A DNA stretch of 58,839 nt from a candidate division WOR-3 bacterium. Lineage in GTDB: Bacteria; SDB-A. A model generated the notes under the pieces. It was not told where the DNA came from. It was given only the letters and a program-made list of their open reading frames with translations, and made no database searches. The stretch spans positions 1 through 58,839 of the forward strand of contig JAFGSQ010000015.1 in the NCBI GenBank assembly GCA_016934535.1. Reading direction: 5' to 3'. The stretch's first letter is position 1, and each line of letters opens with the position of its first letter. Below, one piece after another: positions 50,815 to 58,839 of this stretch. A program made the translations under genes and the position numbers.

Positions 50815-50976
50815 GTTTTGCAATTGCAAAAATAAATTATGCAGTTTTTGCAATAACTCACGAAAAGAGCATGGATTTGCAATTTGCGAAAAATAAACTG
50901 TTATTTATGTTATGACTTTACATATTATTTACTGTAAATAGCGTTAAGGCGATCACAATCGATGATGACAGATTAT

Positions 50977-50992
50977 TGGCGCATTAATTGCT
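50977..50992 (+). promoter_or_regulatory. Sigma54 (-24/-12) promoter 1
   Basis: TGGCGC-ATTAA-TTGCT, GG-N10-GC spacing, about 35 nt upstream of the pilin-like gene. Confidence 0.75.
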
Positions 50993-51026
50993 TTATTTTA
51001 GTTGAAAATTCAATCAGGAGGCTCAA

Positions 51027-51509
51027 ATGAAAAAGAAAATTTTGAAATTTTTTTTAATTGTATTTTTTTTGGCATTATTGGCAGTTGTGACAATATCAGC
51101 AGATATAGTCTTCAACGACGGATTGTTCTTTAAAAATGCCGTCGCTTCGAGTATTTTCAGTGTCAAAAACGCCGAGGACGAGTACATGTCCATAAACCTC
51201 GACAGAACGAGATATCTTGAGTCAATTGTCATTACTAATGCCTACATGGTCCAGAAAGCCGCAGAAGAGTATGCAAGTTATAACGGTGGATATTATCCGG
51301 ATGGATATGCACATTTAAACCTACCATATAGTAGTATAATCAATCCTTTTGATTCGCTAGGCAATTGGATTATTGATGATGTTCAATATGGTGTTGAGGG
51401 AAAAGTAAGTTTTTGCTCTACTTTTGGAACACTGCCGTACACGATTATTGCTGGAGGAAAATACGGAAGAAAAATAATAACTCTCCACAGCTCATACGGC
51501 TCAAATTAG
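51027..51509 (+). CDS. Pilin-head homologue with Sec-type signal/anchor in place of the prepilin N-terminus
   Basis: AGGAGG SD; C-terminal ~100 aa align with the 54385 pilin (ES.V..NA...Q.AAEEY.....G.Y.DG.A.L.LP...I.NPF...YTI..GGK....IITL); no G|FxxxE motif. Confidence 0.75.
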   Translation: MKKKILKFFLIVFFLALLAVVTISADIVFNDGLFFKNAVASSIFSVKNAEDEYMSINLDRTRYLESIVITNAYMVQKAAEEYASYNGGYYPDGYAHLNLPYSSIINPFDSLGNWIIDDVQYGVEGKVSFCSTFGTLPYTIIAGGKYGRKIITLHSSYGSN

Positions 51510-51517
51510 GAGGAAAC

Positions 51518-54040
51518 ATGTCAAAGAAAACATTATTCATATTCATGTTGATTTTCTCTGCTTTGAACTTGTTTTCTCACAGTGCTCTGTTTGAAGCGAG
51601 ATATGATGTTTATGGAGATTCGGATTTTTATCAGGTAAAATATAGAGACATTTGTTTTTTGGTCGAAGATATAGACAATGACCAATTGGCCGATGTGATA
51701 ATGATAAATCCATTATCCGGGAAATTTTTGTTCCTGATAAACCAGGGAAATTACGATTTTTCAAGGCATGAGTTCATTGCTCCAGGAGGAGTGAGGTTCG
51801 CCGATATAGGCGATATAGACGAAGACAATGATCTGGATATTTTATACGTTCCACTTACAAAAAATTATTGGGATACCCCAGACACAATTTTCATATACAA
51901 AAACGACGGAAACTACAATTTCAGTTTTGAATCTTGTATTACTGAATCCTTGACTTTTTTTTGTGGTTTTAAACTTGGCGACCTGGACAATGACGGGGAC
52001 AATGATATTTTTACAATGGTTTACCCAGCTAGATCCTTTATATATAAGAACGATGGGGCAGGTCATTACAATTTTTATGATTCTTTAGTTATAGGAGATT
52101 TTTGGTTATCTCTAATAGATATCGAAATTGCCGATTTAACAAATGATTCTTATGATGATGTTATGTTTTATAATTTCGGTTTGTCTCCAGACGGATTGTT
52201 TGTTTTAAGGAACAACGGGGCTGGATCATTTATTGTTGATTCGTTTTATGAGTTTCCTTTTCCACACATAGATAATGTCATAAAAGTGACCGATGCCGAC
52301 GGTGACGGAGATAACGACGTATTTCTCTATGGATGGGTCACAGACAAGTTGATATACATGATAAACAACGGAAACGGGAAATTCACATCATTGGATTATT
52401 TCGGTTTCGATTTTTTTACACAAAATTTTTATATAACTCCTCTGATGAATGATTTCACGAGGTTTTATTTTACAATGAGATCTGAGCAGGATTATTACAG
52501 CTATAAAAGGAAAGTTTATCTTTTCAAGAATTATCTATTGGATCCGATGACTCTTTTCGATGAATTCGTTTCCTGCGAATTCCCCATGAAGTTAGGAGGA
52601 GGAGATTTCGACGGTGACGGAGACATAGATTACTGCGTCGTAAACTTCAAATCCGGGTTGCTGTCTATAATACAGAACAGAGGAGACGGCAAATTCGTAA
52701 AACCTCCTCAGTATCAGACCGGACTATACCCTCAGAACATCGTAGCCCGTGATTTTAACGGAGACGGGGTAAACGATGTGGCTACAGCCAACGGCGGATC
52801 AGATGACTTCACTGTTCTTTTCAACGACGGACAGGGCGGGTTTTTCAACAGACTTTCATATCAGAGCGATTCTTCCCCCAACGGTATTTGCTCTGGTGAT
52901 TTCGACGGTGACGGGGATCAGGATGTAGCGGTTGCTAATTATTCTTCTGATAATGTAAATATTTTTTCCAACAGCGGATATGGAACATTTTCCTCGGCCG
53001 GTCAATATTCGTTCGGAACAGATCACACAAATCCTTTCGACATAAACTGCGGAGACCTTGACGGTGACGGATATCTGGACCTCGTCGTCTCTCTCCAAGG
53101 AAGTTCTGAGATCTCTCTCCTGACCAACGATGGAAACGGCAATTTTACAGTGGACACATTTTACGGGACCGGACAATCGCCATGTGAGCTGGTGATTGAA
53201 GACTTGAGCGGCGACGGCTTTTTCGACATACTCGTAGTAAACGAGTTTTCAAACACAGTCAGCATATTCACCGGCGACGGGCAGGCAAGGTTTACTTTGG
53301 GGGATTCTCTGACAGGACTCTGTAATCCCACTGGTCTTGTTGTCTGTGATTTTGACGGGGATTCTCTCAAGGACATAGTTGTCTCAAGTGCATATTCCAA
53401 TTCAATACAGGTTTTCAAGAACCTCGGTTCGGGAAATTTCTCAGAATATTTTGAGATTAGAACAGGTTTTGAGCCATGGGGTATAGAATGCGCCGATGTG
53501 GACGCCGACGGGACAAAAGATATTGTCACAGTCAACTTCAAGACTAACAATTTGGCCGTGCATTATGGAAACGGCGACCTGACATTTTCCGAGGCCGAAT
53601 TCTATGGAGTTGACAGTGCCCCCTCCTGTATGGTCTTAGGGGATTTCAACGGAAACGGCGGTGTGGACGTAATAACAGGACATTACACGAGTGACAAGAT
53701 TTCAGTTCTTCTCAGCGAAATAACTACAGGCGTAGGTGAGTCGCCCGGTTACGACAATGGAGACGGCGGCATAAAATTTGAACTGCTCACTCCAAATCTT
53801 TCGCCGGGTAATTTTGATTTAAGGCTGGTTATATCGGGCAATTCCCATGTCACAGTAGAGATATACAATATTCTCGGACAGAAAGTGAAAACGATAGTCG
53901 AAGGAAATCTAACCGCGGGAACACATTTGTTCAGGTGGGAAAGAGACGACGATAAAAATGTGAGGGTTTCTGACGGAGTTTATTTTATCCTGATGAGATC
54001 GGAAAATATAACAGATATAAAGAAGATATCGCTGATCTAA
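51518..54040 (+). CDS. FG-GAP/VCBS-repeat secreted protein with C-terminal T9SS/FlgD-Ig-like domain
   Basis: AGGAGG SD supports ATG 51518; signal peptide; 13 recognisable D.D.DG..D-type repeats; IYNILGQKV...WERDDD...VSDGVYF. Confidence 0.9.
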   Translation: MSKKTLFIFMLIFSALNLFSHSALFEARYDVYGDSDFYQVKYRDICFLVEDIDNDQLADVIMINPLSGKFLFLINQGNYDFSRHEFIAPGGVRFADIGDIDEDNDLDILYVPLTKNYWDTPDTIFIYKNDGNYNFSFESCITESLTFFCGFKLGDLDNDGDNDIFTMVYPARSFIYKNDGAGHYNFYDSLVIGDFWLSLIDIEIADLTNDSYDDVMFYNFGLSPDGLFVLRNNGAGSFIVDSFYEFPFPHIDNVIKVTDADGDGDNDVFLYGWVTDKLIYMINNGNGKFTSLDYFGFDFFTQNFYITPLMNDFTRFYFTMRSEQDYYSYKRKVYLFKNYLLDPMTLFDEFVSCEFPMKLGGGDFDGDGDIDYCVVNFKSGLLSIIQNRGDGKFVKPPQYQTGLYPQNIVARDFNGDGVNDVATANGGSDDFTVLFNDGQGGFFNRLSYQSDSSPNGICSGDFDGDGDQDVAVANYSSDNVNIFSNSGYGTFSSAGQYSFGTDHTNPFDINCGDLDGDGYLDLVVSLQGSSEISLLTNDGNGNFTVDTFYGTGQSPCELVIEDLSGDGFFDILVVNEFSNTVSIFTGDGQARFTLGDSLTGLCNPTGLVVCDFDGDSLKDIVVSSAYSNSIQVFKNLGSGNFSEYFEIRTGFEPWGIECADVDADGTKDIVTVNFKTNNLAVHYGNGDLTFSEAEFYGVDSAPSCMVLGDFNGNGGVDVITGHYTSDKISVLLSEITTGVGESPGYDNGDGGIKFELLTPNLSPGNFDLRLVISGNSHVTVEIYNILGQKVKTIVEGNLTAGTHLFRWERDDDKNVRVSDGVYFILMRSENITDIKKISLI

Positions 54041-54325
54041 AGTGTTTAAAAAACCGCATACCATGATTTTAAACGCCTTTAAAAAAATATTGCAATTTTT
54101 TTACCAAAAGAGTAATATCTACGCTATGAGGAAGGAAAGCGTGTTGAGTTATCACTATGATTATGGTCTTATAAATGAACACCATGAAAACATGTCGCAT
54201 AATTATGAATATTGGAGCAGGCAAAATGCAATAATATGTCCGGTAAATTGCAATATGCGAGAAGAAATTTTTAGTTGTGTATTTCCAAGTGTCGGTAATA
54301 AGCATTTTGTGTATTTAACCAATTA

Positions 54326-54341
54326 TGGCACAAGCATTGCT
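54326..54341 (+). promoter_or_regulatory. Sigma54 (-24/-12) promoter 2
   Basis: TGGCAC-AAGCA-TTGCT, matches consensus, about 45 nt upstream of the pilin. Confidence 0.85.
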
Positions 54342-54384
54342 TGAAAAGCGGTATGAATATAGAATTTAGCAAAGGAGGTTTAGA

Positions 54385-54768
54385 ATGAAGAAAGGATTTT
54401 CACTGATCGAACTGATGGTCGTTGTGGTCATCATCGGCATTCTCGCCGCGATAGCCATACCGAACTTCATCAGACTGAGAGACAGGGCGAAAGAGTCTGA
54501 AGTAAAAGCCAATGCCCACACATGCCAGCTTGCAGCAGAAGAGTATTCAACAACAGCAGATGGAAATTATTGTGATGGTTTTGCTACTTTGACTCTTCCT
54601 TCGAATATCAAGAATCCGTTTGCTGCTGGCGCCGCTGTTGTCGATGATGCTGCTCCGGGAGAGGGAGAAGTTTCATATCAACATGGTGCCTTTGGTGCTT
54701 CAGCATACACAATTGTGGGTGGTGGAAAGGGCGCAGTGCCAATTATTACCCTTTCTCCCGGACAGTAA
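54385..54768 (+). CDS. pilA: Type IV pilin (IVa-type short leader), probable major pilin
   Basis: AAGGAGGT SD; MKKG|FSLIELMVVVVIIGILAAIAIPNF; own promoter and terminator. Confidence 0.92.
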   Translation: MKKGFSLIELMVVVVIIGILAAIAIPNFIRLRDRAKESEVKANAHTCQLAAEEYSTTADGNYCDGFATLTLPSNIKNPFAAGAAVVDDAAPGEGEVSYQHGAFGASAYTIVGGGKGAVPIITLSPGQ

Positions 54769-54965: not shown

Positions 54966-55112
54966 GCCGTTGCGTAGTTTACGGCAATGTTCTATTAAAA
55001 GATATTTAAGGAATTTTTCCATAAAAATATATCCGGTTAAACCAAGAGCTTCCAACCACAAAGTTTATCTACTTCCGTTCAATAATTTATAATTCTAAAT
55101 TTGGAGGTTAAA

Positions 55113-56609
55113 GTGGTTTGGTTTATTTTAATATTAAATCTTTTTAATATTTCTACAAAAGATGCTTGTGTGGGGCTTGATTATTCGTGGTCAATATCAG
55201 GTCAGTATAATTATTTTGGAGGATATAGATGGAACAATGGTTACGCAAGAACTTTTCCAGATCTTGCATACGATATTGATAAATATTTGAATAGTTATAT
55301 TATAACAGGATATACAAGTAGGCCAAGACCAATTAGTCCTGCCTTTCCAAGGAATGGTCTTTACTTAATAGTGAATGCAAGACCTGGTCTTCAAATGAAT
55401 CCTCCAACTATATATCCATATATAGGATTTGATCATGAAAAGTATTATTCTTCTGTTGTATTAGAAAGCGGCCATTTTTTATCAGCAGGTATATATGATT
55501 TTGGAGATGGACAAGGTAGAATTTGTGAAGTAAATGAGAACAACGAACCAACTAGTTTTAATAAGTATCTCATTGATGAGATTAATGAGATAAGTAAAAT
55601 TGAATTTGGTCACGATGATTACTATGTTATTGTTGGTAAAAATTACTATAATGGTCAAATTTGCCTTCTGAAGGATGATTTTCAAGTTAAATACGAGCAA
55701 GATCTGGCTTATAGTACAAATTATTGCACATATGCGTATGATATCGCCGTTTTAAATGACAGTGGGTATATTGTTGTCGGCTCTGGCTCAAGGGCAATAA
55801 TCAAACTGAATTCTGTTTTGGATACAATCTGGACAATATCCGGCGGTGGAAATGCGATCTGCCTTACAAACGACGGTGGATTTGCTGTTACTAGTAATTC
55901 TTCACCACAACCTATTGGTTATATATCAAGATATGATTCATTAGGTCAGATAATTTGGTCAAAAACAGACACTGGAAAGTATTATTTTGATTTGGCTTAC
56001 GATAGTATTATGGCTAAATTCGTCGCAGTCGGGAATGTTGGTTTTGATAGAGACAGCGTATATATTGTATCTTTAGATTCAACAGGTCAAGAAATCGCTT
56101 CTTATACTTTTACAGGAACGAGTAATTCTGGTGAAGAAGTTAGAGCTACATCAGTTTTGAATAATAGCGGCAGTTTTATCATTGTTGGATTTTTATATCA
56201 AATTTCTCCAATAAAACCTTATTATCAGAATGATTCGATGTCTAATGATGTATTTATTTTATCATGGAATTCTAATGAGGATATCGTTCCATTAAATCAT
56301 TTTATTGATCAAAATAAGTTGAATGATATTAAATCTGACAGTACTTTTACTTTCAATGTTTCAATTTTACATGAAAAGGAAATTTTGATTTCGTTTTCTC
56401 TTGAAAATAGCGCAAATGTAAATATTGATATATACAACGTAGTTGGTCAAAAAATTGGCAACATATTCTCAGGAAATATTATCGCCGGCCAACACAATTT
56501 TAGGTATTATCAGAATGCCAATGACTTGAACTTGAGTAAAGGTGTATATTTTGTAAGAATTAAGCTAAATGGTTTACCATATACAAGATCTTTTACTTTA
56601 TTTCACTAG
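55113..56609 (+). CDS. Low-GC secreted beta-repeat protein with C-terminal T9SS/FlgD-Ig-like domain
   Basis: GGAGGT SD supports GTG 55113; repeats such as D.GY.VVG, KLNS..DTIW, RYDSLG..IW; IYNVVGQKI...LSKGVYFVRI. Confidence 0.78.
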   Translation: MVWFILILNLFNISTKDACVGLDYSWSISGQYNYFGGYRWNNGYARTFPDLAYDIDKYLNSYIITGYTSRPRPISPAFPRNGLYLIVNARPGLQMNPPTIYPYIGFDHEKYYSSVVLESGHFLSAGIYDFGDGQGRICEVNENNEPTSFNKYLIDEINEISKIEFGHDDYYVIVGKNYYNGQICLLKDDFQVKYEQDLAYSTNYCTYAYDIAVLNDSGYIVVGSGSRAIIKLNSVLDTIWTISGGGNAICLTNDGGFAVTSNSSPQPIGYISRYDSLGQIIWSKTDTGKYYFDLAYDSIMAKFVAVGNVGFDRDSVYIVSLDSTGQEIASYTFTGTSNSGEEVRATSVLNNSGSFIIVGFLYQISPIKPYYQNDSMSNDVFILSWNSNEDIVPLNHFIDQNKLNDIKSDSTFTFNVSILHEKEILISFSLENSANVNIDIYNVVGQKIGNIFSGNIIAGQHNFRYYQNANDLNLSKGVYFVRIKLNGLPYTRSFTLFH

Positions 56610-56678: not shown

Positions 56679-58361
56679 GTGAAAAAAAATATCGTATTTA
56701 TCTTCATTCTTATAATTGTCCCGATAATTCTCTATTTTCAAACTCTAAAGTTCGGATATGTCAACTGGGACGACTCTTATCTACTTGTGGACAATGCGTC
56801 CTTCTTTGAAAAACCTTCAAACATTTTCGCTTCTTTTACAAAAGATTTGTCTCTTTCGACCAATGACCAAAATAAAATATTCTACAGGCCGTTAATGCTC
56901 GTGTCTTACGTCATTGAATACCAGTGGGCAAAAGAAAATCCCCGGTCATATCATTTGACAAATGTCATTTTTCATATAGTTTCGACCCTTTTGCTGTTCT
57001 TTTTCCTCCGGCAGTTGAAAGTTTCTGAAAGGTCAAGTTTTTTTCTGTCCCTGATTTTCTCTGTCCATCCCTTGACGGTCCAGTCCGTGGCGTGGATTCA
57101 GGGCAGGAACGATTCTCTTCTTTTGATTTTTCTCCTTTTGTCGCTTATATCCCTTGAAAAATTGAGAAAAAAATTCTCTTGGCTCATCCTGACTTCACAT
57201 TTTTTGGCATTTTCAGCGGCACTCCTGACAAAGGAATCAGCTCTGTTATTCCCTGCCGTATATCTGGCTTATTTGGCCTTGGTCCAAAAAGAAAAAATTT
57301 TTACGAAAAGAAACGCCCTTTTATCTGCGGGTTGGTTAGCAATTACAACCTTATGGTTTTTCTTCAGAAGTATGGTTATACATTTAGGATTCAGAGGATT
57401 TTACTCGGTTAAAGATATGGCTCTCGGAATTCTAAGTTATTCCGGAAAGCTTGTCTTTCCGTTTGATCTTTCTCCTTACCCTGTACCGGAAAATGTCTTT
57501 CCGATTTACGGTGTGCTTGTCTTGTCATTTATAGTGCTATTGGTTACTTTTAGAAAGATCAGGGATAAAAGTAAATTTTACTTCGGAGCATTATGGTTTC
57601 TGTCGTTGATAGGTGTAACTTTCGCAAGAGGTTTTACGACAGCAAGTTTTATAGAAACGAGAATTTATCCAGCCCTCCCGGGGGTTATGCTGATGATGGC
57701 TGAAATTGATCTCGGAAAAATATTGTCAAAGTATAAGTACGTGTTCTTTTTGTTCTTATTTGTACTTTTTTCTTCGGTCACTTATGTCTATTCGAAGGTT
57801 TACAGGGATCCTCTTTCCCACCAGATATTCGCTGTAAAATCCTCTCCAAACTCGTGGGTGACAAGACACAATCTCGCCCTTGAATATTTGAGAATTGGAA
57901 GGACCGACTTTGCCTACAACCAGATCAAGAGGGCTTATTCACTCAATCCACAGAATTCAACCCTTAATGCAAATTATGCCTTGATTTTGGAAAAGATGGA
58001 AATGACAGACAGCGCTCTTTTTTATTACAAAAAAGCGTTGTCTATAAATCCTCAAAACCTGAACGCTTTTAATAATACGGGGCTTATATATTATAATAAT
58101 GGTGAATACGACAGCGCCCAGAGATATTTTTCAGACGGATTGTTAATTTACTGCGGGGACGCAATCATGCACTTCAATTTGGCTAACACTTTTTTTATGA
58201 AAAAAGAATTCGGGTCTGCTAAAACAGAGTATTTAACGGTCATCGAACTGGATCCAACAAATAAAGAAGCTTTGAAATATTTGAGTTACACTTATAAAGA
58301 ACTCGGTTCAAATGATTCTGCTGAATATTACGAAAAGCTCTTTAATGAATCTTATCCCTGA
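56679..58361 (+). CDS. TMTC-like GT-C membrane glycosyltransferase with C-terminal TPRs
   Basis: NWDD, FYRPL, YHLTNV.FH, F.VHPL...SVAWI.GR.D, KE.A, R.Y; four or more TPR repeats. Confidence 0.85.
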   Translation: MKKNIVFIFILIIVPIILYFQTLKFGYVNWDDSYLLVDNASFFEKPSNIFASFTKDLSLSTNDQNKIFYRPLMLVSYVIEYQWAKENPRSYHLTNVIFHIVSTLLLFFFLRQLKVSERSSFFLSLIFSVHPLTVQSVAWIQGRNDSLLLIFLLLSLISLEKLRKKFSWLILTSHFLAFSAALLTKESALLFPAVYLAYLALVQKEKIFTKRNALLSAGWLAITTLWFFFRSMVIHLGFRGFYSVKDMALGILSYSGKLVFPFDLSPYPVPENVFPIYGVLVLSFIVLLVTFRKIRDKSKFYFGALWFLSLIGVTFARGFTTASFIETRIYPALPGVMLMMAEIDLGKILSKYKYVFFLFLFVLFSSVTYVYSKVYRDPLSHQIFAVKSSPNSWVTRHNLALEYLRIGRTDFAYNQIKRAYSLNPQNSTLNANYALILEKMEMTDSALFYYKKALSINPQNLNAFNNTGLIYYNNGEYDSAQRYFSDGLLIYCGDAIMHFNLANTFFMKKEFGSAKTEYLTVIELDPTNKEALKYLSYTYKELGSNDSAEYYEKLFNESYP

Positions 58362-58393
58362 TATATATTTGCATTTTGCAAAAATAATCTGTC

Positions 58394-58420
58394 GGTTCGC
58401 ATTCTGCGAGCCTTTTTTTT
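58394..58420 (+). terminator. Intrinsic terminator after the TMTC-like gene
   Basis: GGTTCGCA-TTC-TGCGAGCC followed by T8. Confidence 0.8.
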
Positions 58421-58522: not shown

Positions 58523-58839
58523 ATGAAAAATAAAGGATTTTCCCTAATAGAACTGATGGTTGTCGTCGTAATAATAGGGATTCTTGCCGCCGTTGCGATA
58601 CCGAATTTTGTCAGGCTTCGCGACAGAGCAAAGGAAGCAGAAATAAAATCCAACGCACACACCCTCCACCTTTCCGTGGAAGAATACTCGACATCTGCAG
58701 ACGGATTTTACATAGACGAAGCTAACATGGCGTCTCTGTCAATGCTCGGAAGCCTTAAAAATCCGTTCAATCCCTCTGGAGCGGCTTGGTCGCCGGACGC
58801 TCCCGCCGAAGCAGGGTGCGTAAGCTACGATCACGACGG
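58523..58839 (+). CDS. Type IV pilin paralogue (partial; runs off the window end)
   Basis: Not in ORF track; AAGGAG SD; MKNKG|FSLIELMVVVVIIGILAAVAIPNFVRLRDRAKEAEIKSNAH...EEYST.ADG.Y...KNPF. Confidence 0.92.
   Translation, partial: MKNKGFSLIELMVVVVIIGILAAVAIPNFVRLRDRAKEAEIKSNAHTLHLSVEEYSTSADGFYIDEANMASLSMLGSLKNPFNPSGAAWSPDAPAEAGCVSYDHD

Follow-up and report, generated by a model that had tools for sequence, protein, structure and literature searches.

A pilin-head protein without a prepilin site, encoded beside an FG-GAP repeat gene in a candidate division WOR-3 bacterium

Introduction

Pilins are usually regarded as fibre subunits only. The present study deals with a gene in which a pilin head appears to have been put to another use. 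The window analysed is a stretch of 58,839 nucleotides (nt) from a candidate division WOR-3 bacterium (contig JAFGSQ010000015.1), and the gene is the open reading frame (ORF) at 51027..51509 on its forward strand, with a product of 160 amino acids (aa). Its host is an uncultured sediment bacterium. A sequence-only reading of the same DNA had taken the product for a pilin head domain that carries a Sec-type leader instead of the polymerisation helix. The gene is confirmed to be real, and its structural interpretation as a pilin head without a prepilin site is confirmed to be correct. Judged by sequence comparison, it is a paralogue of the type IV major pilin of its own lineage.

The gene and its pilin head

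The ORF opens with an ATG at 51027 and closes with a TAG at 51507-51509. The gene and the parts of its product are as follows.

51016..51021, + strand: Shine-Dalgarno (SD) sequence AGGAGG, 5 nt 5' of the ATG (direct reading of the sequence)
51027..51509, + strand: coding sequence of the 160-aa leaderless pilin-head protein, stop included (ORF list, BLASTP, orthologues, dN/dS)
51027..51101, + strand: Sec-type leader, residues 1-25, with MKKK, an 18-residue uncharged run and TISA before the conserved D26 (rule-based reading)
51102..51203, + strand: new conserved N-terminal segment DIVFNDGLFF...YMSINLD, residues 26-59, absent from pilins (orthologue alignment A1)
51204..51281, + strand: helix homologous to pilin alpha1-C, residues 60-85, RTRYLESIVITNAYMVQKAAEEYASY (BLASTP, alignment, AlphaFold2 helix 49-85)
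51282..51506, + strand: alpha-beta loop and beta-sheet of the pilin head, residues 86-160 (BLASTP, AlphaFold2, VIA-align)

BLASTP aligns residues 60-153 of the protein with residues 32-123 of the 127-aa pilin encoded further along the window at 54385-54768, with 43/95 identities (45%) and an E value of 6e-17. This match is far above chance, and the head alignment read from the letters alone is thereby borne out. The N-terminus, MKKKILKFFLIVFFLALLAVVTISA, lacks the G|F..E site of prepilins; the sequence reads MKKKILKFFLIV, which is no class III signal peptide. The N_methyl and IV_pilin_GFxxxE models of Pfam and NCBIfam find no match in the 160-aa protein and match both neighbouring pilins, with Pfam E values for N_methyl of 1.9e-8 and 1.6e-9. 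A genome-wide scan with TIGR02532 returns four prepilin sites, none of them in this ORF. The three scans agree with the sequence-only reading that the site is missing. Additionally, no Pfam or NCBIfam family reaches its cut-off in the protein.

The architecture of the first helix is also altered. In a pilin, alpha1-N runs continuously into alpha1-C; here, in all five orthologues, 34 inserted residues separate alpha1-C from the hydrophobic stretch. The loss of the prepilin-peptidase site and of a hydrophobic alpha1-N continuous with alpha1-C excludes both pilin processing and the usual helix-bundle polymerisation. Whether the polymerisation helix was replaced, or diverged and was set apart by a 34-residue insertion, are two readings that cannot be told apart.

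Predicted fold

The AlphaFold2 (AF2) model of the protein has a mean predicted local distance difference test (pLDDT) score of 72.6, with values of 80-90 over residues 60-155. It comprises two helices, 2-30 and 49-85, a low-confidence stretch between them, and three strands. Compared with 48,161 chains of the PDB by VIA-align, residues ~49-160 find type IV pilins or pseudopilins in all of the top 19 rows, at Z values from 7.1 to 4.7. The best are 6xxd_A (Z 7.1, root-mean-square deviation 2.6, 85 aligned residues), 4d40_A (6.6) and 4noa_A (6.4). Because the notes of the tool rate such Z values as middling, the AF2 model of the true pilin (pLDDT 80.2, single helix 7-57) was run as a control; it returns the same top three chains, at Z 6.9, 6.1 and 5.4. 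The head is, as modelled, as pilin-like as that of a real pilin. A globular head, with alpha1-C packed against an antiparallel beta-sheet, is thus present, with Z values that are modest and a sequence match that carries the claim. The pilin fold expected from the sequence-only reading is seen in the structure comparison too.

Other searches add little. Foldseek gives no match in the PDB at E <= 0.001; its best row is the same pilin chain, 6xxd_A, at E 0.44, and its row for FlaF (4p94_B, E 4.5) is not significant. The best ESM Atlas score is 0.88, to unnamed clusters that offer no lead. The profile of alignment A1, run against all PDB sequences at E up to 1, matches N-terminal pilin helices only, including geopilin domain 1 of 6vk9 (an N-terminal helix), and no head chain; these helix matches stem from the true pilins in that alignment.

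Orthologues and common plan

A search of 5.8 billion proteins finds five sequences at E <= 0.001, the query included. The four others are the following.

P0002: 163 aa, 67% identity to the query
P0003: 161 aa, 57% identity, 'hypothetical protein JW890_07785 [candidate division WOR-3 bacterium]' (NCBI), the gene of genome G003
P0004: 155 aa, 53% identity to the query
P0005: 126 aa, the gene of genome G004, shortened by a stop

These are five species-level orthologues, four of which are intact. HMMER, run in full over 1.84 billion representatives, brings in no orthologue cluster beyond these, and a scan of genome contigs adds only L006, which is contig C5 of G004. Longer or fused forms of the protein were not found, with a search tool that treats a blank as weak evidence. 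Scanning metagenomes with the orthologue alignment returned one locus, L040, which was rejected: it holds an unrelated ORF, bactofilin-like by reading, with a glycine-rich repeat and a chance GDIVFNDGL. Contig L006 (CAYNIW010000005.1) is recorded as uncultured Desulfuromonadaceae, a label that looks wrong: its locus is syntenic with the window, and the genome set assigns it to the window's genus.

The same plan is common to all five orthologues: MKK, a hydrophobic leader of 22-28 residues, an invariant D-x-x-FNDGLFF, the 34-residue segment, alpha1-C and the head. The leader type is kept in five of five, and none has a normal prepilin leader, so that a recent decay of a prepilin does not apply.

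Leader and new N-terminal segment

Leader type and cleavage site were judged by rules (n-region, h-region and the residues at -1 and -3) on the five orthologues. All leaders begin with MKK and are 22-28 aa long. Position -1 is A, A, G, A and A, and position -3 is I, I, V, F and F. The uncharged runs comprise 18, 21, 15, 18 and 15 residues, the shorter ones with Gly or Pro. A lipobox with Cys at +1 is not present: the leaders of the query, P0002, P0004 and P0005 have no Cys, and P0003 has only C5, which stands before the hydrophobic run. The T9SS (type IX secretion system) C-terminal sorting domain, TIGR04183 or PF18962, has no match in the protein either.

Among the four full-length orthologues, merely 3/25 leader residues are invariant, and conservation begins exactly at D26. 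Such an abrupt change from a variable leader to an invariant residue is the usual mark of a cleaved Sec signal, and it fits one here. By these sequence features, the leader is quite probably cut by signal peptidase I after A25, which would release a soluble periplasmic protein of 135 residues; otherwise, it would serve as a membrane anchor.

In the latter case, the protein could be a membrane-tethered pilin mimic, with an uncleaved anchor in the inner membrane and the topology of an unassembled pilin, acting on the pilus machine independently of the FG-GAP protein encoded next to it. It might occupy the pilin docking sites of the alignment complex or tune assembly, and would then resemble archaeal ArlF/ArlG. 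The query and P0002 have uncharged runs of 18-21 residues, with a best 19-residue Kyte-Doolittle mean of 2.9, and two of the five orthologues carry F at -3, which is poor for signal peptidase I. The promoter type is common to pilins, and AF2 draws one helix over residues 2-30. However, the runs of three of the five span only 15-18 residues and contain Gly or Pro, and a stable anchor would normally be longer. Moreover, the least conserved part of the protein is the leader, and the sharp start at D26 fits a discarded signal better. A tethered mimic would also leave the strict coupling to the FG-GAP gene unexplained, and we regard it as unlikely.

The sequence-only reading had described a Sec-type leader plus a spacer of ~35 aa; the leader type stands, whereas the spacer proves to be 34 residues (26-59) that are strongly conserved and not a loose linker. 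In the four full-length orthologues, 21/34 residues of this segment are invariant, compared with 21/26 of alpha1-C and 19/75 of residues 86-160. Conservation within the protein is highest in the new segment and in helix alpha1-C. Searched with a hidden Markov model (HMM) of the segment, the whole genome shows no other match (next best E 0.32). Confidence of the AF2 model is low in this region, with pLDDT < 50 for residues 31-55.

Selection and integrity of the gene

For the three genomes with DNA, ratios of nonsynonymous to synonymous rates (dN/dS, Nei-Gojobori) of 0.175, 0.100 and 0.136 were obtained. Alignment columns 31-90, which cover the new segment plus alpha1-C, give 0.06-0.13. With dS near saturation these values are rough, and they indicate purifying selection (0.10-0.18). 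Together with orthologues that keep the architecture, this upholds the earlier view that the gene is not a pseudogene.

A decaying duplicate, namely a pilin copy that lost its prepilin site and is becoming a pseudogene without a function of its own, would account for the very small family of five sequences and for the absence of the gene from G002, which belongs to the same genus and is 100% complete. It would also account for an in-frame TAG in the G004 orthologue (P0005; L006:8001-8483), at codon 127, where the nearly identical P0002 has Ser. The shortened 126-aa product is recorded on 14 contigs, and the TAG is rather a fixed or common allele than a single assembly error. The sequence 3' of the TAG still matches P0002, with 93% over the head, and since it is still conserved, the break is recent. 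The dN/dS of 0.10-0.18 in three species largely refutes decay, four of five orthologues are intact, and the most conserved segment is one that pilins lack. Furthermore, the promoter, the SD sequence and the 8-nt coupling to the next gene are kept in 3/3 genomes. Decay is therefore a very improbable explanation.

Promoter and regulation

The upstream region holds the following elements, listed with the corresponding box of the neighbouring pilin gene.

50878..50889, + strand: repeat TGCAATTTGCGA, a candidate enhancer for activator binding, 99 nt 5' of the -24 box (pattern scan)
50977..50991, + strand: sigma54-type -24/-12 element TGGCGC-N5-TTGC, 35 nt 5' of the ATG (pattern scan)
54326..54340, + strand: sigma54-type box of the neighbouring pilin gene (pattern scan)

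The sigma54 promoter named in the sequence-only reading is thus found in place. The pattern TGGCRYNNNNNTTGC (TGGCRY-N5-TTGC) has two matches in the 58.8-kb window, one at the 160-aa gene and one at the pilin gene at 54385. The chance expectation is 0.29, and two or more matches occur in 4/100 shuffles. The whole 2.23-Mb genome has 13 matches. A sigma54 box lies 30-35 nt 5' of the ATG at 3/3 orthologous loci (G000, which is the window's own genome, G003 and G004) and at 5/5 of the neighbouring pilin genes examined. Additionally, the genome encodes rpoN and six full-length sigma54 activators, two of them on contig C55 with pilus ATPase genes.

The first enhancer pattern tried had one window match only. 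The pattern YGCRDTHTGCRW (YGCR-N3-TGCR) has five window matches against 0.91 expected, a number reached in 0/100 shuffles, although the count is post hoc, since the motif was derived from the same regions. Four of the five matches (50878-50889, 54249-54260, 58370-58381 and 58398-58409) lie 75-100 nt upstream of three sigma54-type boxes. This repeat could be the binding site of one activator for the pilins and the leaderless head. The same study includes two metatranscriptome runs, whose matches are limited to the conserved N-terminus of pilins and lie in contigs of other organisms. A 100-aa GTG ORF at 54042-54344 overlaps the sigma54 box of the pilin gene and the repeat upstream of it; it is probably not a gene.

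The FG-GAP partner and its genomic setting

Downstream of the 160-aa gene, the window continues with the following genes.

51518..54040, + strand: 840-aa FG-GAP repeat protein with a signal peptide and a T9SS C-terminal sorting domain (Pfam, NCBIfam)
54385..54768, + strand: true prepilin of 127 aa, MKKGFSLIE..., closest paralogue of the head (BLASTP, Pfam, TIGR02532)
58523..58839, + strand: second true prepilin, cut by the window end, at least 105 aa (Pfam, TIGR02532)

The FG-GAP protein matches FG-GAP_3 at E 2.8e-65 in 12 stretches and FlgD_ig at 7.4e-7, and reaches 28 bits with TIGR04183 against a cut-off of 23. Its ATG (51518) follows the stop of the 160-aa gene by 8 nt, with its SD sequence over the upstream stop codon, and the same arrangement is found in 3/3 genomes. 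The strong SD sequence (AGGAGG) and the 8-nt spacing described from the letters alone are therefore as reported. By its layout, the FG-GAP gene is to be read as co-transcribed and translationally coupled with the 160-aa gene.

The GTDB phylum consists of six genomes, from G000 to G005. By full-length matches, the 160-aa gene and the FG-GAP gene are both present in G000, G003 and G004, and neither is present in G001, G002 and G005. The identity of the FG-GAP protein in the two other carriers is 74% and 60%. In G002, the pilin gene comes immediately after groES. A diverged contig with the same gene arrangement occurs in a wastewater run.

The gene order at the locus is glgA, groEL, groES, the 160-aa gene, the FG-GAP/T9SS gene, a pilin gene, a gene for a 502-aa T9SS-domain protein, a PMT_2/TPR glycosyltransferase gene and a second pilin gene, and it is the same in L006. 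The 502-aa protein (55101-56609) is encoded directly 3' of the pilin and is kept in L006. Also kept there is the 560-aa membrane protein with PMT_2 and TPR (56679-58361) between the two pilin genes, which is a candidate pilin glycosyltransferase. T9SS-type C-terminal domains (Por_Secre_tail or FlgD_ig) occur in the 502-aa protein and in the one encoded at 7-1659. Elsewhere, the genome has genes for a prepilin peptidase, a secretin and PilB/PilT-type ATPases of the pilus. SprA-like and PorV-like genes are also present, and a T9SS in this genome is plausible.

Origin and other leaderless pilin heads

The head shares 35-46% identity with the pilins of the genus. Recent gene conversion with the neighbouring pilin was considered and rejected, with a nucleotide identity of 45-51% and a longest identical run of 12 nt. 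From the protein and nucleotide identities and the lack of a long identical run, it follows that the copy is old and has not been converted recently. A tree of 117 head domains, built by maximum likelihood, places the four orthologues in a single clade (99/98), which is nested in a clade (100/99) with the lineage's own prepilins; the branch order within this clade is not resolved by the tree.

These identities bear on the phage decoy proposed in the sequence-only reading, here taken as a phage or predator decoy in which a free head is released and absorbs pilus-binding phages or other ligands of the pilus. The resemblance of the head to a pilin is the only point in its favour, whereas the leader would bring it by Sec to the periplasm only, with no signal for outer-membrane export such as a T9SS domain or a lipobox. 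PADLOC and PHROG give no matches for the protein or its neighbours. Moreover, at 35-46% identity and with no recent gene conversion, the surface of the pilin is not closely tracked. The decoy idea is unsupported and is given very little weight here.

Leaderless pilin heads are not confined to this family. The HMMER search returns 19 representative matches, made up of two orthologue clusters, two true prepilins and 15 others. By reading, each of these 15 carries the unit of alpha1-C and head, in one to five tandem copies, behind a lipobox leader. One protein of the tandem-head type, P0014, recruits 46 clusters at E <= 1e-5, nearly all of them 'hypothetical' and without a Pfam domain, with three true prepilins. 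The metagenomic lipoproteins with one to five tandem heads comprise P0006-P0009, P0011-P0021 and P0023-P0054; one of them is named FlaG/FlaF by JGI. Three tandem-head paralogues lie on one 27.5-kb contig.

Two further pilin heads in the window's own genome also stand on lipoprotein leaders without a prepilin site.

G000:C37:8660-9490 (L017:985-1818): C37 lipoprotein, 277 aa, E 1.5e-13
G000:C64:15381-15773, - strand: C64 lipoprotein, E 1.2e-5

C37-type orthologues are present in G004 (L020) and, outside the genus, in G001 (L016). The head tree sets three clades apart, namely the family of the 160-aa protein, the C37 type (100/100) and the tandem type (100/98). Their separation suggests, as far as the sequences go, repeated origins of leaderless pilin heads.

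Proposed role and significance

Taken together, the favoured interpretation, to which we assign a probability of roughly 60%, is that the 160-aa product is an exported, non-polymerising pilin paralogue that works with the FG-GAP protein. When pilins are made, the protein would be made in a fixed ratio with the FG-GAP protein and would bind to it. On genomic grounds, the likely contact would be the conserved N-terminal segment and the exposed face of alpha1-C. In one version, it would escort the FG-GAP protein, or mask its pilin-binding site, during the crossing of the periplasm, where pilin heads are abundant. In another version, it would tie the propeller protein on the surface to the pilus system.

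Several observations weigh against this interpretation. Two of the five leaders have F at -3, a poor residue for signal peptidase I, and the uncharged runs of the query and P0002 are long enough that they could act as a membrane anchor. A T9SS cargo ends outside the cell and a Sec-only protein stays in the periplasm, so that contact between the two may be transient. G002, complete and of the same genus, does without the gene pair, and co-occurrence in six related genomes amounts to about one event of gain or loss. The early stop in G004 implies either that the last head strands are dispensable or that the gene is being lost in that species. Co-folding of FG-GAP residues 21-760 with residues 26-160 of the protein gave a score of 0.00 and a mark of 0.32, which speaks neither for nor against binding.

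A bolder version would see the product as a dedicated coupling protein between two envelope machines, which binds the FG-GAP propeller protein in the periplasm by its new N-terminal segment and then hands this T9SS-exported adhesin to the pilus or prevents it from binding pilins too early. This is a doubtful proposal at present. If it were true, it would be the first described link between a T9SS cargo and a type IV pilus, and an instance of a general, recurrent way in which pilin heads turn into free binding modules.

The wider meaning lies in the re-use of a piece of the pilus, which is rare but real. After duplication, the head lost what processing and polymerisation require, acquired an export signal and a new conserved segment, and stayed beside a propeller gene under regulation of the pilin type. 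Taken with the other leaderless heads, this points to the pilin head as a binding module that can be re-used in the periplasm or at the surface and that current annotation misses: of nine leaderless proteins scanned, not one reached the cut-off of a Pfam family. If the FG-GAP/T9SS link is true, two secretion and motility machines of unculturable candidate phyla would be connected.

Comparison with known systems

The closest relatives of the protein are the type IV major pilins of the lineage (54385-54768), with a homologous alpha1-C and beta-sheet head (45%, E 6e-17) and the same sigma54 promoter type. Its best structural match is PilA4 of Thermus thermophilus (PDB 6XXD, Z 7.1). Type IV pilins have the G-1/F+1/E+5 site and the N-methylation motif, both of which are missing here, and the protein cannot serve as a pilus subunit of the ordinary kind.

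The tandem-head proteins and the C37 and C64 lipoproteins share with it the module of head plus alpha1-C, without a prepilin leader and with an ordinary export leader. They differ in having a lipobox, in being often tandem, in lacking the DIVFNDGLFF segment and in having no known FG-GAP neighbour. Word searches of an open-access library returned no paper on tandem-head lipoproteins or on a Sec-exported pilin-head paralogue beside an FG-GAP/T9SS gene.

Three described systems offer partial parallels. ArlF/ArlG (FlaF/FlaG) are archaellin duplicates turned into a non-filament stator (PMC8667602). As duplicates of a filament subunit without a filament role and with a new role beside the machine (PMC8667602; PMC4425475), they offer an analogy only. 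However, they are archaeal, have a beta-sandwich head fold and retain an uncleaved membrane helix. In the system of PilK with PilC/PilY1, a pilin head holds a large propeller adhesin by beta-strand addition (PMC13533445). By analogy, this could be a model for the binding between a pilin head and an FG-GAP propeller, although PilK, a true prepilin, is incorporated into the tip of the fibre, and PilY1 lacks a T9SS domain.

The third parallel is GSU1497, also called PilA-C or Spc, of Geobacter sulfurreducens. Two papers (PMC5174107, PMC11046646) present it as a pilin head with its own signal peptide, encoded beside pilin genes, and the latter as forming a heterodimeric subunit with the 61-aa PilA-N. 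The likeness lies in a pilin-derived head that stands as a protein of its own behind an ordinary signal peptide, which in the 160-aa protein is a probable one. Following this precedent, the 160-aa protein might be the head of a split pilin that joins a short, helix-only pilin as a two-chain subunit. Nevertheless, no helix-only short pilin (~60 aa) was found in the genome: its four prepilin-site ORFs encode 119-162 aa, and the two at the locus carry their own heads. The helix alpha1-C, which in Geobacter belongs to PilA-N, is kept in the 160-aa protein, and its neighbour is the FG-GAP gene and not a short pilin. A split pilin is therefore hardly credible here.

The protein is thus a member of none of the three, neither PilA-C/GSU1497 nor ArlF/ArlG nor PilK. 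The Geobacter head arose by fission and has a 61-aa helix-only pilin as its partner. In contrast, the genome studied here keeps full-length pilins, and its additional head has retained alpha1-C, gained a new segment and taken its place beside an FG-GAP/T9SS gene.

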